From the UHGV virus genome UHGV-1353861: a stretch of 5,555 bases of DNA. The stretch is one strand, 5' to 3'. This document shows, one piece after another, positions 2,583-5,555 of this stretch. This DNA is from a virus. The notes beneath the pieces were generated by a model. That model had not been told where the DNA came from, made no database searches, and saw only the letters and a list, made by a program, of their open reading frames with translations. A program made the translations under genes and the position numbers. The first letter of the stretch is position 1; the number at the start of each line of letters is the position of its first letter.

Positions 2583-2597
2583 TTCTTAAAGTCCAAT

Positions 2598-2622
2598 GAA
2601 AAAAACCTGTATTAAGACAGGT
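2598..2622 (-). terminator. Intrinsic terminator / attenuator after the ssb gene
   Basis: On the minus strand there is a hairpin ACCTGT-cttaat-ACAGGT (6-bp stem, 2622..2605) followed by TTTTTTT (2604..2598). The ssb stop codon TAA (2614..2612) lies in the loop. Confidence 0.5.
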
Positions 2623-2848
2623 CTTGAGAAGAAAAAATTAAAGAATTATTACGTTGATGAAGTTTTAACTGAGGAAGCGTTTCACCTGAATCAGCAAGAG
2701 CCATCAAAGTGGCAGAATCTTGTGCTTTATCAGGATTAATATATTTTCTTACTGTTTCTTGTACTTCTACAAAAAAATAAGGTGTAACACCATCTTTTTT
2801 AAAGCCTTTTTTTACTTGAGCTTGCTCAACAATAGTAATCATTGACAT
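2612..2848 (-). CDS. gV-like ssDNA-binding protein (78 aa)
   Basis: The N-terminus MSMITIVEQAQVKKGFKKDGVTPYFF follows the pattern of the M13 gV N-terminus (..VEIKPSQAQFTTRSGVSRQGKPYSL..). Size and position (first gene after rep) also fit. The SD AAAGGT is 8 nt upstream. The C-terminal half is less obviously gV-like. Confidence 0.5.
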   Translation of the reverse strand: MSMITIVEQAQVKKGFKKDGVTPYFFVEVQETVRKYINPDKAQDSATLMALADSGETLPQLKLHQRNNSLIFSSQDLS

Positions 2849-2881
2849 TTTTAGTACCTTTTTTCATTTATACGGTTAATA

Positions 2882-2944
2882 AATTAGTACAATTAGTATG
2901 TTGTCATGTTTTCATGTTGTCAATACAGCAAGTCAACAAGTTGA
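2882..2944. promoter_or_regulatory. Cluster of operator-like repeats in the rep-ssb gap
   Basis: The cluster holds a tandem AATTAGTAY x2 (2882-2899), a direct repeat ATGTTGTCA x2 (2899-2907 and 2914-2922) and a palindrome TCAAC-AA-GTTGA (2933-2944). All lie between the divergent starts of the ssb gene and the + strand 62-aa ORF. Confidence 0.4.
2895..2923 (-). promoter_or_regulatory. Candidate sigma70 promoter for the ssb/structural operon
   Basis: On the minus strand there is a perfect -35 TTGACA (2923..2918), a 17-nt spacer and a -10-like CATACT (2900..2895). This is about 45 nt upstream of the ssb ATG. Confidence 0.4.
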
Positions 2945-2985
2945 TAAAATATTTGTAGTTGTTTTTTTAAAAGGTTGAAATATAA

Positions 2986-3174
2986 ATGATTTCTGCATAC
3001 CTTCGGATTAAAAAAGACGAAGAAAAAGCATTGATGAATCTGTCACAAGAAGTAAACAGACAAAGATTGGATTTAAATCTCGGAGTTATAAAAGAAAGTG
3101 AAATTTTGCACGAGCTAATTAAACAAGCCTTTAAAAAAGCCCATGCAAAAAAAGGAGAAATTAAGCTAGATTAA
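2986..3174 (+). CDS. Putative ribbon-helix-helix (Arc/CopG-like) DNA-binding protein, 62 aa; only plausible + strand gene
   Basis: The N-terminus alternates polar and hydrophobic residues (SAYLRIK), consistent with an RHH beta-strand. It is followed by helix A, an NLG turn and helix B (VIKESEILHELIKQAFKKAH), which resembles the Arc C-terminus (NSEIYQRVMESFKKEG). The ORF fills an otherwise noncoding 310-nt gap and overlaps the rep 3' end convergently by 14 nt. The RBS is weak (AAGG with a 12-nt spacing). This is a by-eye fold assignment only. Confidence 0.35.
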   Translation: MISAYLRIKKDEEKALMNLSQEVNRQRLDLNLGVIKESEILHELIKQAFKKAHAKKGEIKLD

Positions 3175-4462
3175 AGTTAATCACTGGAGGAGGTTCACAA
3201 GCATCTGCAAAACGCGGGACAGAAATATCCATGTTGTTTATTTCCTCCAATATCAAAATCTCATATTCAGCAAGAGAATTAATAAGAACATCAGCAGATC
3301 CATTACCTAAAACACCGTTTAATTTATCTTGAGTAATACAATCTAAAAACTGAGCACGTTTTTTATATTTACAAAGAAGATGAAAAGCCAAATCTTCAAT
3401 ATTTGTTAAAAATTCAGCTTCATCTAAAGTTGAATCAGCAATTTCATCATCTGAAATATCTTTAATTGAAAAAGCATGTTTAAGACCACGAGAAAACACA
3501 AGCTGTCTAGCACCCTTAAAAGCAATCGCAAATTCTTGAAATAGTTTTGATGGAAGTTTATTTTCAAAAATAACTTCATCTTTTTCCGATAGCCTAAGCA
3601 GATCAAAAGGGGTAAAAGTTTCACGACCTTTTTTTACATGCCCTTTAGTCATTTCATGCTCAATGCCCCATTTGCCAACGTATTGATCAGCATATGTTCC
3701 ATCTCTAAAATCACAGGCTATAAATTTTTCTTCTTCTTTGACTTTTCGAATACCGACAGCAGCTAGCGATGCTCTCCAGTGATCAGCCATAACTTCATGG
3801 AGTGCAGAAAATTCATGAATAGATAAATATTTATCTGAAAATACTAAAATGTGATGGTGAGGATGCCAACCATTAGACCCGTATGTAACTTCATAGTTGG
3901 TGATGTGAAAACGCTTGCCTAGCATGTGATCAAAGATATAACGACCTTTACGATCAGAGAAAAACTTCTTCATAGCTTCTTTTTGTTTTTCGCGGAGAGT
4001 AGACAAGCGATCTTGAGCATAATGGGGATTTGTTAAGGTGATTAGATATGTATAGCCTTTAACATGTTCCTCAACAAAACGCGGTGCGCCTACAAATGTT
4101 TTCGATTGTTCTACTGGAGAGTAGAGAGTAATCCCATTTTTCCAGCGTTCATTAATGGTAGCTAATTCTAAACGTCTTTTTTCAGTAATCTTTTTTGCAC
4201 AGACAGGACAAACCCAAACAGATCCACATCGGATAACGTTTCCAAAATGCGCTTTTTTAGTTGATTCATTCCAACAAACATTAACTAATTCAGACTTATT
4301 AATTTTGCGCTTTAGACAATATTTAACGCGGAATTTATGTTGAAGTAATTTTGACGCTTGATCTTGTAAAAGGTAGTCAGTGAGCCGCTTTTGATCTATT
4401 GCGGAGTGAGATTTCGTAAGTATACCAAGAGACCCAAAAATTTGACTTACAGTGTTATTCAT
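3161..4462 (-). CDS. Rolling-circle replication initiator (pII-like / phage CRI-type Rep), 433 aa
   Basis: All three rolling-circle (RCR) motifs are present: motif I YLITLT, motif II HUH (GWHPHHHILVF), and motif III with two tyrosines spaced Y-x3-Y (TYADQYVGKWG). There is also an N-terminal Cys4 zinc-ribbon-like segment (VCW..IRCGSVWVCPVCAKK). This is the largest ORF and sits next to the intergenic hairpins. Confidence 0.9.
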   Translation of the reverse strand: MNNTVSQIFGSLGILTKSHSAIDQKRLTDYLLQDQASKLLQHKFRVKYCLKRKINKSELVNVCWNESTKKAHFGNVIRCGSVWVCPVCAKKITEKRRLELATINERWKNGITLYSPVEQSKTFVGAPRFVEEHVKGYTYLITLTNPHYAQDRLSTLREKQKEAMKKFFSDRKGRYIFDHMLGKRFHITNYEVTYGSNGWHPHHHILVFSDKYLSIHEFSALHEVMADHWRASLAAVGIRKVKEEEKFIACDFRDGTYADQYVGKWGIEHEMTKGHVKKGRETFTPFDLLRLSEKDEVIFENKLPSKLFQEFAIAFKGARQLVFSRGLKHAFSIKDISDDEIADSTLDEAEFLTNIEDLAFHLLCKYKKRAQFLDCITQDKLNGVLGNGSADVLINSLAEYEILILEEINNMDISVPRFADACEPPPVINFNLA

Positions 4463-4498
4463 TTATAATGCCTATATGTGTTCGCAGTACACAGATCC

Positions 4499-4531
4499 AA
4501 AAAACCCCGCCCGCCAAGTTGGGGTTTTTTT
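4499..4531. terminator. Bidirectional intrinsic-terminator-like hairpin; also predicted to form the 5' stem-loop of rep mRNA
   Basis: The sequence is AAAAAACCCC-gcccgccaagtt-GGGGTTTTTTT. A G/C stem is flanked by an A-run on one side and a T-run on the other, so either strand reads as hairpin plus U-tract. It lies about 200 nt downstream of the pI stop and about 35 nt upstream of the rep ATG. Confidence 0.5.
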
Positions 4532-4541
4532 CTGTCTAATG

Positions 4542-4571
4542 ATTTTGATGTTTTGTTGTCATATTGTCAAT
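4542..4571 (-). promoter_or_regulatory. Candidate rep promoter sharing a conserved motif with the ssb promoter
   Basis: On the minus strand there is a perfect -35 TTGACA (4570..4565), a 17-nt spacer and a -10-like CAAAAT (4547..4542). The minus-strand motif ATTGACAATATGACAACA matches ATTGACAACATGA..ATGACAACA upstream of ssb. The predicted transcription start falls at the beginning of the 4531..4499 hairpin. Confidence 0.4.
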
Positions 4572-4578
4572 AAGAGAT

Positions 4579-4635
4579 AGACACAACGCTTCGCGTCGCT
4601 TGCGCGCCCTCAGCCGACCGCGTCGCGTTGTGTCT
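4579..4635. other. GC-rich perfect 11-bp inverted repeat (stem-loop), candidate packaging signal or replication origin hairpin
   Basis: AGACACAACGC (4579-4589) pairs with GCGTTGTGTCT (4625-4635). A further 4 bp (4592-4595 with 4619-4622) pair after a 2-nt bubble. The 35-nt spacer is about 75 percent GC in an otherwise AT-rich genome. It sits in the intergenic region between pI and rep, where inoviruses carry the morphogenetic signal and origins. Confidence 0.5.
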
Positions 4636-4675
4636 TAGTTTCATTGTTATCTCCAATGGCTATTATCATTCGACG

Positions 4676-4699
4676 AAAATGGGAACCCCAACCCATTTT
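4676..4699. other. Perfect 8-bp stem hairpin AAAATGGG-aaccccaa-CCCATTTT just downstream of the pI stop
   Basis: The hairpin is seen directly in the sequence. T or U runs flank it on both strands (CCCATTTTC on one, the complement on the other). It could be a terminator for the pI operon or an origin hairpin. Confidence 0.4.
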
Positions 4700-4705
4700 C
4701 TGGCT

Positions 4706-4794
4706 GCTCCCGATTAAAATCATAAGGGAGCTTTGTAATCAGAGAGGAGAAGTTTCAGGATTCGTTTGCATCGGTTCGGGAGCACTCCGCTCCC
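4706..4794. repeat. Four clustered copies of the hexamer GGGAGC / GCTCCC, arranged as two inverted pairs
   Basis: The copies are GCTCCC at 4706-4711, GGGAGC at 4726-4731 (inverted pair, 14-nt spacer), GGGAGC at 4778-4783 and GCTCCC at 4789-4794 (inverted pair, 5-nt spacer). The second pair lies inside the last codons of the pI gene. A GC-rich hexamer recurring four times within 90 nt of an AT-rich genome suggests protein-binding iterons or origin structure. Confidence 0.4.
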
Positions 4795-5555
4795 TCTGTT
4801 CTTGTCGGTTTTGAGCAAAATAATTAAATGGTCTATATCCGGATAGCCATTTTTTACAATCGGCCTCAGATACGTTTTCCATGTAGTTTCCTTGCTGATC
4901 GACTGCCATTAATTTTCCACTGGAGAGCTGTATCACACCGGACATTCTTGGAAAATCTGTGGGCTGCACCTGCGGAACATAATCAAAGTCATACGGTTTA
5001 TTAGGATTATAAGAAACCGTTTGTACAGTACCGCTAGAAGTCACAGAAGAACCACTTTTAGAAAGGTCATTAAACCATTTGACACATTCCGGCTTCTCTA
5101 CATTTTTGCCCTTTCTGCATTCAATATCAGGATCGAATTTTGAATTATTAGAAACTGAATTATCTGTTTTTTGATTTGCTTGAGTTTGTTCTTTTTCTAC
5201 TTTTTCGCCTGTCATACCTGATACAGCATTACGAGCCAATTTATCACCACCTGACTTTGTAAATAAGAAATATGCAGCAGACATTAAAACAATAATGGCA
5301 ATAATTGCATAAATAAACTTGCTTTGAATCTTAAAGTTAATGGAAGTATGAGCAGATGCACTTGTATACATATCCTGCCATTTCTTCTTATAGAAAAATT
5401 TATAGCTATCTTGATACTTCACTGACCTTTCAGAAGCAGCAGCTTGCCACGGATCGCGAAGCCATCTTTCAAATTCGTAGATAGTTGCAAAATTTGGTTT
5501 TTGAATTGGACGTTTAACCAGGTGCATTTTTTCAATCAGCATTCTGATTGCTTTG
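4739..5555 (-). CDS. C-terminal part (about 271 codons) of a Zot/pI-family protein; the ORF is open to the window end and is most likely the continuation of the pI gene that starts at 383
   Basis: There is no in-frame stop between the listed ATG (5542) and the window end, where KAIR precedes the M, and there is no SD upstream of 5542. The topology is a cytoplasmic segment, one TM (FIYAIIAIIVLMSAAYFLF) and an approximately 173-aa periplasmic domain, matching the C-terminal half of Zot/pI proteins. Joining position 5555 to position 1 keeps both partial ORFs in one frame through the junction codon AAC. The result is a single 399-aa protein. Confidence 0.55.
   Translation of the reverse strand, partial: KAIRMLIEKMHLVKRPIQKPNFATIYEFERWLRDPWQAAASERSVKYQDSYKFFYKKKWQDMYTSASAHTSINFKIQSKFIYAIIAIIVLMSAAYFLFTKSGGDKLARNAVSGMTGEKVEKEQTQANQKTDNSVSNNSKFDPDIECRKGKNVEKPECVKWFNDLSKSGSSVTSSGTVQTVSYNPNKPYDFDYVPQVQPTDFPRMSGVIQLSSGKLMAVDQQGNYMENVSEADCKKWLSGYRPFNYFAQNRQEQRERSAPEPMQTNPETSPL

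Follow-up and report, generated by a model that had tools for sequence, protein, structure and literature searches.

A conserved antisense gene of an Acinetobacter inovirus encodes a candidate ribbon-helix-helix-like regulator beside tandem promoter-overlapping repeats

The repressors RstR of CTXphi and Pf4r of Pf4 are helix-turn-helix proteins of integrating phages. Each is encoded by the only antisense gene of its phage, divergent from the main operon and located in an exchangeable module. Other small phage repressors, such as Arc and Mnt of P22, belong to the ribbon-helix-helix (RHH) class and have operators that overlap divergent promoters. RHH proteins are obligate homodimers, intertwined such that the two N-terminal strands pair as an antiparallel ribbon, and they bind specific tandem or inverted repeats. 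RHH dimers bind cooperatively to at least two contiguous repeats of 7 bp, as omega of pSM19035, or of 8 bp, as MetJ. TraM is a tetrameric relaxosome accessory factor that binds oriT sites and has a C-terminal tetramerisation domain. On the plasmid pMV158, the small RHH repressor CopG (RepA) occludes the promoter of the rolling-circle initiator (PMC2724298). CopG is cotranscribed upstream of repB, binds a 13-bp pseudosymmetric element and is paired with the antisense RNA II against the rep leader. In the Pseudomonas phage PMBT54 (OR047306.1), ORF2 (WJZ46451.1) was annotated between rep and ssb, and its authors reported matches to the RHH-type proteins MatP and SeqA (PMC10534721). Acinetobacter filamentous phages were first characterised in 2024, and the literature on filamentous phages and prophages of A. 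baumannii that was compared here does not mention a repressor.

We analysed UHGV-1353861, a complete circular Acinetobacter-type inovirus genome of 5555 nt, which as a whole is the window referred to below. An initial annotation had proposed that a small antisense ORF between rep and ssb encodes an RHH repressor, and its features were found where it had placed them, apart from minor corrections. The genes of the locus and their signals are:

2612..2848, − strand: 78-aa ssb-like gene, first in the structural operon, at the gV/ssb position, matching phrog_21135
2625..2602, − strand: terminator-like hairpin after the ssb-like gene
2969..2974, + strand: Shine-Dalgarno-like AAAAGG, 11 nt 5' of the orf62 ATG
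2986..3174, + strand: orf62, 62 aa, ATG start
3161..4462, − strand: rep, HUH rolling-circle initiator distantly related to Rep_1; phrog_11698

As had been described, orf62 overlaps the 3' end of rep and is the sole antisense gene in the genome. It faces the 78-aa gene that opens the structural operon. The genes orf62 and rep are convergent, share 14 of the 189 nt of orf62, and no terminator was found between them. The gap between rep and the start of the next gene at 2848 exists but measures 312 nt instead of 310 nt. On the − strand, none of its ORFs reaches 30 aa; a trivial 38-aa TTG ORF at 2842-2958 on the + strand means that orf62 is not quite the only ORF there. The label rep was confirmed by the HUH motif HPHHHIL in the sequence and by Pfam Rep_1 in a 45%-identical relative. 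For ssb the position fits, but the 78-aa protein matched only phrog_21135 and no entry of Pfam, NCBIfam or PDB, and we call it a putative ssb by its position. When the whole window was compared with phage records by megablast, no match was obtained. In the plasmid collection, one Acinetobacter lwoffii prophage matched over the structural half of the window only, having 4707-5555 plus 1-2593 in common and not 2594-4706. The exchangeable replication/regulation module comprises 2.1 kb, at about 2594-4706. An Rfam search matched no family.

The orf62 gene is real, conserved and under purifying selection. Close homologues were found in 55 clusters with 66-89% identity, every one of them 62 aa long. 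A profile search gave 77 family members. Their contigs measure about 5.5-14 kb, the size of inoviruses, or are shorter fragments. A scan of the genome collection for orf62 homologues confirmed none. The order ssb-like(−)/orf62(+)/rep(−) was retained in 10 IMG/VR loci, even with a Rep that was only 44% identical. Loss of the reading frame in related phages had been named as a result that would speak against the gene. The frame is conserved, with codon-periodic substitutions and a low pN of 0.1-0.3, compared with a pS of 0.6-0.9 at which synonymous sites are saturated. Third codon positions varied in 55 of 62 codons, whereas second positions varied in 19 of 62. The start codon and the Shine-Dalgarno sequence are retained in the aligned relatives, the latter as AAAGGTTGAAA.

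Orf62 belongs to the PHROG family phrog_5642 (E 1e-16, residues 1-62 versus profile positions 4-66 of 68). The predicted layout consists of an extended segment (1-9), two helices (10-29 and 37-51) and a C-terminal beta-hairpin (52-61). In this monomer prediction, an N-terminal beta-strand leads into helix A and, after a short turn, into helix B, all within about 45 residues, which is the RHH topology. The residues S3-A4-Y5-L6-R7-I8 of the strand alternate between hydrophobic and polar or basic, which in RHH strands face the core and read the DNA, and S38 opens helix B, where RHH proteins have a conserved S, T or N that contacts phosphate. Among 22 diverse members, L6, R7 and S38 were each at least 90% conserved, and E12, N24 and H42 were invariant. 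The canonical RHH spacing G-x-S/T/N is absent from Orf62 (G33...S38). Two features are unusual for minimal RHH proteins: the length of helix A (20 residues) and the beta-hairpin at the C-terminus.

The earlier statement that the sequence fits an RHH profile thus holds for the predicted topology and the residue pattern, but not for family matches in Pfam, NCBIfam or PDB. No RHH family in Pfam was matched at E ≤ 1 by Orf62 or the 22 diverse members, the lone Pfam match of Orf62 being YbaB, below threshold, and none of the 77 database members had any precomputed Pfam domain, RHH or other. The NCBIfam search with Orf62 and the search of PDB sequences with phmmer and hmmsearch profiles gave no match. 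Neither the library-wide hmmsearch with 19 representatives nor the search with the 77-member profile produced a link to RHH proteins, and Foldseek of the predicted structure against PDB returned nothing significant (E > 2). A resemblance to Arc had also been claimed. BLASTP found no alignment at E ≤ 100 and hhalign gave a probability of 0.2%, and homology to Arc was rejected as lacking statistical support; the Pfam Arc family was absent from the Pfam scans of Orf62 and the members, and the similarity to Arc and Mnt is not significant. Orf62 is most likely an RHH-like DNA-binding regulator, and we treat it as a candidate for this class.

The DNA upstream of orf62 and of rep contains the following elements:

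2867..2897: conserved block TTTATACGGTTAATAAATTAGTACAATTAGT, including a tandem AATTAGTAY, part of the 5' leader predicted for the ssb-like mRNA
2895..2923, − strand: predicted promoter of the ssb-like/structural operon, with −35 TTGACA (2923..2918), 17-nt spacer and −10 CATACT (2900..2895)
2898..2921: candidate operator O1, three tandem 8-mers ATGTTGTC / ATGTTTTC / ATGTTGTC
2933..2944: imperfect inverted repeat TCAAC-AA-GTTGA (TCAACAAGTTGA), its right arm overlapping the TG of the extended −10
2942..2950, + strand: candidate extended −10 of the orf62 promoter (TGaTAAAAT)
4542..4570, − strand: predicted rep promoter, with −35 TTGACA (4570..4565), 17-nt spacer and −10 CAAAAT (4547..4542), overlapping O2
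4554..4569: candidate operator O2, a second motif cluster with two copies, TGTTGTCA TATTGTCA

Two direct repeats had been noted here. They are present as ATGTTGTCA at 2898-2906 and 2914-2922, but are actually the first and third copies in an array of three tandem 8-mers. Of the 25 positions of the O1 repeat, 23 were invariant across 8 phages with saturated synonymous sites, compared with 7 of 62 third codon positions. Relatives have 3-4 copies of the 8-mer and retain the register. Pairs of TTGTC spaced by 8 bp occur 3 times in the genome versus 0.46 expected, a number reached in 4 of 200 shuffles, and these pairs are confined, here and in every relative, to the DNA that precedes the ssb-like gene and rep. 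The placement of O2 about 90 nt upstream of rep recurs in relatives, and each of the two arrays precedes an operon start by about 50-105 nt.

The two arrays each coincide with one of the genome's four best sigma-70 matches. The promoter of the ssb-like gene, with a 10/12 match, is one of these four; both hexamers are invariant, and the −35, the spacer and the −10 are all within or touching the O1 array. As had been suggested, the 5' flank of orf62 is shared with this predicted promoter, the conserved repeats overlapping the best sigma-70-like match there. The motif is also common to the predicted rep promoter (10/12), where the two-copy cluster is found at 4554-4569. The −10 hexamers CATACT and CAAAAT are weak. 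The −35 consensus TTGACA is itself contained in the 8-mer on the sense strand; promoter function alone could therefore account for some of its conservation. In relatives with an extra RHH_9 gene, the rep-proximal array forms no good promoter, the promoter consensus being weaker. For orf62, the pattern TGnTAnnnT of the putative extended −10 was retained in 8 of 8 aligned phages. Its −35 would be at about 2922-2927, directly next to the last 8-mer and partly on top of the −35 of the divergent promoter. Since this −35 is weak, the promoter was missed by the consensus scan.

The tandem AATTAGTAY was found as described, as AATTAGTAC / AATTAGTAT at 2882-2899, and 23 of the 31 positions of the block 2867-2897 were invariant in the alignment of relatives. 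The 12-bp palindrome turned out to be imperfect, with 5-bp arms TCAAC/GTTGA around AA. Its left arm varies in relatives and the single-stranded fold of the region was no better than that of shuffled sequences, and it was rejected as a conserved operator or hairpin. The CAACTTG on the − strand of this inverted repeat was also rejected as a nick site; it is not conserved across relatives. On the viral strand of the rep-ssb gap, no convincing nick site of the pC194/phiX type TCTTGATA was found. The single-stranded DNA fold of the whole intergenic region was unremarkable (z +0.18). The zot-rep region, by contrast, is strongly structured (z −6.3) and is therefore the more likely site of the origin and the packaging signals.

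The distant homologues are always head-to-head with rep or with the structural operon, and each is the sole antisense gene; this divergent layout holds in 10 close and 7 distant loci. The initiators next to the homologues are of four or more unrelated families, among them Rep_1-like, Phage_CRI, Rep_trans and Rep3. In the subfamily with the strand YLR, the intergenic region has TTGTC arrays, with (S/N)FRL it has ACACAAAT-A-ATTTGTGT, and with NLKL two copies of ATTATGCCAGCATA. Since the initiators are unrelated and the repeats change with the N-terminal strand, the arrays appear to be tied to Orf62 rather than to Rep. For the Phage_CRI phage L016, a lone intergenic ATGTTGTCA was set aside; it is at most suggestive because the 9-mer also occurs by chance within coding regions of L019 and L022.

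As the sole antisense gene, divergent from the major operon and in an exchangeable module, orf62 has the position of the inovirus switch/immunity repressors, here represented by RstR and Pf4r. The distant homologues that are head-to-head with rep occupy the exact position of RstR. In contrast to RstR and Pf4r, orf62 has moved in this clade to the interval between the ssb-like gene and rep, in a genome that lacks an integrase gene. The initial annotation regarded this gene position as not described. It is not new, since PMBT54 has an annotated antisense RHH-like ORF between rep and ssb (PMC10534721). The PMBT54 ORF2, with 64 aa, also overlaps the 3' end of rep and has an RHH-type sequence pattern, and four tandem 8-bp repeats cover the predicted ssb promoter. 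However, ORF2 has no detectable sequence similarity to Orf62 and was rejected as a detectable homologue (hhalign probability 0.2%). The PMBT54 repeat differs (GTGTTnTC), also in its orientation relative to the small ORF, and an omega-like RHH_9 gene upstream of rep is absent from our phage. Orf62 differs from CopG in being encoded antisense to rep and downstream of it, in having the virion-gene promoter as its main predicted target and in lacking a Pfam RHH_1 match. Omega and MetJ are a precedent for three to four contiguous 8-mers as an operator, although Orf62 is unrelated to them in sequence, its helix A is longer and a beta-hairpin is added at its C-terminus.

Our preferred reading, with a probability of about 0.5, is that Orf62 is a small dimeric RHH-like DNA-binding transcriptional regulator of the 2.1-kb module in an episomal Acinetobacter inovirus. 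We infer that it binds DNA and represses the transcription of the virion genes and possibly of rep. With its invariant sequence MISAYLRI, the N-terminal strand of Orf62 dimers would enter one major groove after another along the ATGTTGTC 8-bp repeats, and the dimers would bind 2898-2921 cooperatively, like MetJ on its 8-bp met boxes and omega on its 7-bp heptads. Since O1 covers the −35, the spacer and the −10 of the leftward ssb-like/coat/assembly promoter, its occupancy would exclude RNA polymerase and lower virion production. The O2 array (4554-4569) may act likewise on the predicted rep promoter. The rightward orf62 promoter would be back-to-back with the repressed promoter, and the two are expected to be mutually exclusive because their −35 regions overlap; the switch may be bistable. 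Autoregulation of orf62 is possible since the bound array would be just upstream of its own −35.

Alternatively, Orf62 may regulate by DNA binding while the 8-mers are not its operator or its effect is not repression, which we consider unlikely. It could bind the inverted repeat 2933-2944 or the block 2867-2897, only autoregulate, or activate, and the 8-mers would then serve as promoter or UP-like elements, or be bound by a host factor or by an RHH_9 protein. The −35 consensus inside the 8-mer fits this, as does the unexplained block 2867-2897, which is as conserved as the repeats, and the second RHH gene (RHH_9/omega-like) upstream of rep in relatives and in PMBT54 would supply a potential binder. 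However, this phage has no RHH_9 gene and keeps both arrays, the copy number of the 8-mer varies between 3 and 4 with the register intact, as is typical of cooperative protein sites, and the inverted repeat has a left arm that varies. Somewhat less probable is that Orf62 is a replication accessory protein that serves the Rep nickase by bending or organising its DNA, much as the RHH proteins TraM and TraY assist relaxases, with the 8-mer arrays as iteron-like sites at or near the rolling-circle origin. The best structural match of Orf62 was indeed the N-terminal domain of TraM (pED208; PDB 3omy, 3on0), at a sequence identity of 7-8%. In addition, orf62 abuts rep, tandem direct repeats resemble iterons, PMBT54 with a 26% identical Rep likewise has 8-bp tandem repeats, and a role in replication was proposed by the PMBT54 authors for the positional analogue ORF2 (PMC10534721). 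Unlike TraM, Orf62 has only 62 aa and occurs in phages whose initiators are diverse, and its family accompanying at least four unrelated initiator families argues against this role. So do the positions of the two arrays, which each precede an operon start by about 50-105 nt and overlap a top-scoring promoter match, the lack of single-stranded structure in the array region compared with the zot-rep region, and the missing pC194-type nick site on the viral strand of the gap.

A lower probability still is given to Orf62 being a small helical protein that does not bind DNA, e.g. for superinfection exclusion or host modulation, whose antisense position merely provides independent expression. This would agree with the failure to match any sequence family with an assigned function and with the Foldseek result against PDB, and small non-regulatory inovirus proteins exist, such as the Pf inhibitor of type IV pili, according to the title of PMC8764522. 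It is very improbable that orf62 is untranslated and that its conservation reflects an antisense RNA or constraints on the rep 3' end. The 3' overlap of the convergent genes and the absence of an intervening terminator would allow this, but the overlap concerns only 14 of 189 nt, the substitutions are codon-periodic with saturated synonymous sites and a low pN, the length of 62 aa is constant in about 50 clusters, and the start codon and the Shine-Dalgarno sequence are conserved.

If Orf62 is the repressor preferred here, it may have a partner. CopG is paired with RNA II, and a candidate counterpart in this genome consists of:

4442..4531, + strand: candidate small antisense RNA against the rep leader, with promoter, stem-loop and terminator hairpin
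4442-4469, + strand: its promoter TTGACT-16-TATAAT, 11/12 match
4478-4492, + strand: its stem-loop
4499-4530, + strand: its terminator hairpin, followed by a T-run

The promoter is conserved in 10 of 10 relatives, and compensatory changes were found in 6 of 15 base pairs. It is conceivable, if doubtful, that Orf62 and this RNA form a two-tier, plasmid-like control circuit in an inovirus without integrase. From the 8-bp arrays, Orf62 would switch off the virion-gene promoter and dampen rep while its own back-to-back promoter stays on, and the countertranscript would set the Rep level.

A small repressor on promoter-overlapping repeats is a conventional mechanism; the protein family was previously unnamed. 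The results provide a functional hypothesis for the unannotated family phrog_5642, with its 77 members on inovirus-sized contigs. They name an exact candidate operator, the ATGTTGTC arrays, and two candidate target promoters, which makes the control of virion production directly testable. One small regulator family that travels with at least four unrelated initiators helps to annotate cryptic inovirus regulatory modules. If the two-tier circuit is true, the phage could persist as a silent, copy-controlled RF 'plasmid' and then switch to virion production, which would be the episomal equivalent of lysogeny. With the repressor relocated between rep and ssb, replication and production would be separately regulated.

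All large ORFs of the window are located on the minus strand. The Zot/pI gene starts at 383, leaves the left end and resumes in frame from 5555 to 4739 as a single 399-aa ORF. Since this ORF is unbroken across the 5555/1 junction, the window represents the entire 5555-nt genome in circularly permuted form. The genes are in the following order.

4462..3161, minus strand: rep, phrog_11698, with the HUH motif HPHHHIL; Pfam Rep_1 in a 45%-identical relative
2848..2612, minus strand: ssb-like gene of 78 aa, named by its gV/ssb position
minus strand, after the 78-aa gene: gene of 60 aa
minus strand, after the 60-aa gene: major coat protein gene, Pfam Phage_Coat_B
minus strand, after the coat gene: pIII-like gene
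minus strand, after the pIII-like gene: DUF2523/pVI-like gene
minus strand, last: Zot gene

A terminator-like hairpin at 2602-2625 (minus strand) overlaps the stop codon of the ssb-like gene and suggests attenuation between this gene and the coat genes. On the plus strand, a sigma-70-like sequence (2565-2592, 10/12 match) is found immediately 5' of a 47-aa ATG ORF (2596-2739) that is antisense to the ssb-like gene.

In the initial annotation, an antisense ORF had been noted in a 310-nt gap between rep and the ssb-like gene. The gap measures 312 nt, and its sole sizeable ORF is orf62 (2986-3174, plus strand, 62 aa), which overlaps the 3' end of rep by 14 nt. The protein matches phrog_5642 (function unknown, E 1e-16), and its homologues form 55 clusters at 66-89% identity, with a length of exactly 62 aa in essentially every one. 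The order ssb-like(-)/orf62(+)/rep(-) is kept in ten IMG/VR contigs, even with Rep at 44-46% identity. When nine genomes were compared, the synonymous differences were saturated (pS 0.6-0.9), whereas pN was 0.1-0.3, and 55 of the 62 codons varied at the third position against 19 of 62 at the second. The start codon and the Shine-Dalgarno sequence AAAGG are conserved. We conclude that orf62 is almost certainly a real gene.

The host genus is Acinetobacter, and the Orf62 protein is contained in A. baumannii and A. soli assemblies. Two of the A. soli entries, the 13.3-kb 'plasmids' CP119249 and CP119241, each contain the same phage genes in two copies, separated by about 6.67 kb. They seem to be replicative forms of an inovirus, present as tandem dimers, that were deposited under the name of plasmids. 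In its structural and assembly half (4707-5555 plus 1-2593), the window shares 84-93% identity with a prophage that is carried by the 186-kb A. lwoffii plasmid pmZS (NZ_CP019144.2) and flanked by ISAba32 copies. There, the module 2594-4706 with the ssb-like gene, orf62, rep and the non-coding regions is swapped wholesale for a II/X-family Rep and two different antisense small genes.

The proposal that Orf62 is a ribbon-helix-helix (RHH) protein was only partly sustained. A Pfam scan gave a sub-threshold YbaB match only, none of 22 diverse family members matched an RHH family, a Pfam domain is recorded for 0 of 77 database members, and profile searches of PDB and NCBIfam returned no match. The suggested similarity to Arc was not significant, and Foldseek found nothing with the structural model. 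Structure prediction told more. Two AlphaFold runs (monomer models, pLDDT 92-93) both gave two helices, 10-29 and 37-51, with a loop between them, followed by a C-terminal beta-hairpin (52-61). Confidence was lowest for the first nine residues, which were non-helical with a diverse alignment; an RHH strand, formed only upon dimerization, would usually look like this in a monomer model. Residues E12, N24 and H42 are invariant. L6 and R7 of the strand are nearly so, as is S38, with which helix B begins, and this pattern fits an RHH protein. We conclude that Orf62 has a predicted RHH-like fold with an extra C-terminal hairpin, that it represents a new family as judged by sequence, and that it is probably an RHH-like DNA-binding protein.

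The two direct repeats of ATGTTGTCA described in the initial annotation (2898-2906 and 2914-2922) are present but belong to three tandem 8-mers at 2898-2921 (ATGTTGTC, ATGTTTTC, ATGTTGTC). The tandem AATTAGTAC/AATTAGTAT was found at 2882-2899, and the 12-bp palindrome TCAACAAGTTGA (2933-2944) is imperfect, an inverted repeat in which 5-bp arms flank AA. Three TTGTC core pairs spaced 8 bp apart occur in the genome against 0.46 expected, at 2901-2921 and 4556-4568 only, and in every relative the pairs are confined to the same two places. In an alignment of eight phages with saturated synonymous sites, 23 of 25 array positions are invariant, as are 23 of 31 in the adjoining block 2867-2897 and 0 in the stretch 2951-2967. 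The relatives have three or four perfect copies of ATGTTGTC, and the array of an A. soli phage has the pattern of the window, ATGTTGTC/ATGTTTTC/ATGTTGTC. The block 2867-2897 (TTTATACGGTTAATAA...), nearly invariant like the array, lies within the 5' leader predicted for the ssb-like mRNA and might be a translational operator, another protein-binding site or a site for a host factor.

On the minus strand the array reads TTGACAAC ATGAAAAC ATGACAAC AT and provides a consensus -35 (2923..2918), a 17-nt spacer and part of the -10 CATACT (2900..2895) of a predicted promoter toward the ssb-like operon. A second, two-copy array (4554-4569) overlaps TTGACA-17-CAAAAT, the predicted promoter toward rep. 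The predicted ssb-like and rep promoters share a motif, as had been suggested, and both are within the four best sigma-70 matches of the genome. On the plus strand, the candidate extended -10 TGaTAAAAT (2942-2950) is kept as TGnTAnnnT in 8/8 phages; the -35 position that goes with it adjoins the last 8-mer and shares nucleotides with the leftward promoter's -35. Because of this overlap, the two back-to-back promoters are probably mutually exclusive.

Single-stranded DNA folding of the orf62/ssb-like intergenic region was not unusual (z +0.18), and the zot-rep intergenic region 4463-4738 folded far better than shuffled sequence (z -6.3). The origin and the packaging signals are more likely to lie in the latter; no nick site was identified. 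The zot-rep region also contains a GC-rich inverted repeat (4581-4636, GACACAACGC...GCGTTGTGTC), which was absent from the corresponding position of relatives. A small antisense RNA directed at the leader of the rep mRNA may be encoded at 4442-4531 (plus strand). Its promoter TTGACT-16-TATAAT (11/12 match) is conserved in 10/10 relatives, and the -10 directly abuts the rep start codon. A 4-bp stem-loop (4478-4492) is followed by a hairpin (4499-4530) with T7-9 on the plus strand, and compensatory changes affect 6 of 15 pairs. The candidate resembles the Rep-controlling countertranscripts of rolling-circle plasmids, and in Pseudomonas phage PMBT54 a hairpin of similar orientation (~118-150) precedes rep.

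Profile searches reached distant Orf62 members at 24-40% identity. In phages with a Phage_CRI initiator (L016-18, L024/25, L028), in Rep_trans phages (L026/27) and in Dulem virus 62, the homologue is the sole antisense gene, head-to-head with rep, and in L019, with an adjacent Rep3 gene, it is head-to-head with the structural operon. The RstR and Pf4r repressors occupy this position. The intergenic repeats vary among subfamilies with differing N-terminal strands.

strand YLR: TTGTC arrays
strand (S/N)FRL: ACACAAAT-A-ATTTGTGT
strand NLKL: two copies of ATTATGCCAGCATA

This pairing fits a sequence-specific regulator whose specificity would reside in the strand. One distant homologue, at 6001-6225 of an ENA metagenome contig (L025), is next to MipA and Cas2 genes and lies at the margin of an integrated prophage of Phage_CRI type, so that integrated inoviruses, too, contain members of the family. 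In most relatives and in PMBT54, rep is directly preceded, on its own strand, by an extra RHH_9/omega-like gene of 63-65 aa (L012, 3480-3677, minus; PMBT54, 7127-7318, plus), in a copG-repB-like layout; the window lacks this gene. In the relatives carrying it, the second TTGTC array is between its stop codon and the hairpin.

The Rep of PMBT54 is 26% identical to that of the window. Its ORF2 was annotated as an antisense 64-aa gene overlapping the rep 3' end between the rep and ssb genes, with reported MatP and SeqA hits and a suggested replication role (PMC10534721). ORF2 has a typical RHH pattern in its sequence and no detectable similarity to Orf62. As in the window, tandem 8-mers, four in number (1766-1797), precede ssb and overlap a predicted promoter. 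The antisense-ORF/repeat architecture is therefore common to both phages and partly described before, contrary to the earlier view that the gene position was new. New is the unannotated sequence family; its role, by analogy, would be the known one of a small phage or plasmid RHH repressor.

MetJ binds 8-bp met boxes and omega 7-bp heptads cooperatively, which is a precedent for Orf62 dimers that would bind the contiguous 8-mers cooperatively. Bound Orf62 would block the ssb-like/coat/assembly operon at its promoter and, less strongly, rep at its own, and the divergent promoter of orf62 itself would stay usable. Virion production would be down-regulated in an episomal phage without integrase. 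We give this full repressor model a probability of about 0.5. Orf62 might instead be an origin or replication accessory factor, but a Rep-specific accessory role is disfavoured by the subfamily repeats, which differ along with the N-terminal strands. It could also be a regulator that acts at other sites or has the reverse effect. Less probable still are a small protein that does not bind DNA and, very improbable in view of the codon pattern, a non-coding artefact. With the repressor model there is a first concrete hypothesis, open to testing, of how filamentous phages of Acinetobacter are regulated, and the Orf62 family can serve to mark the regulatory module in cryptic inoviruses.
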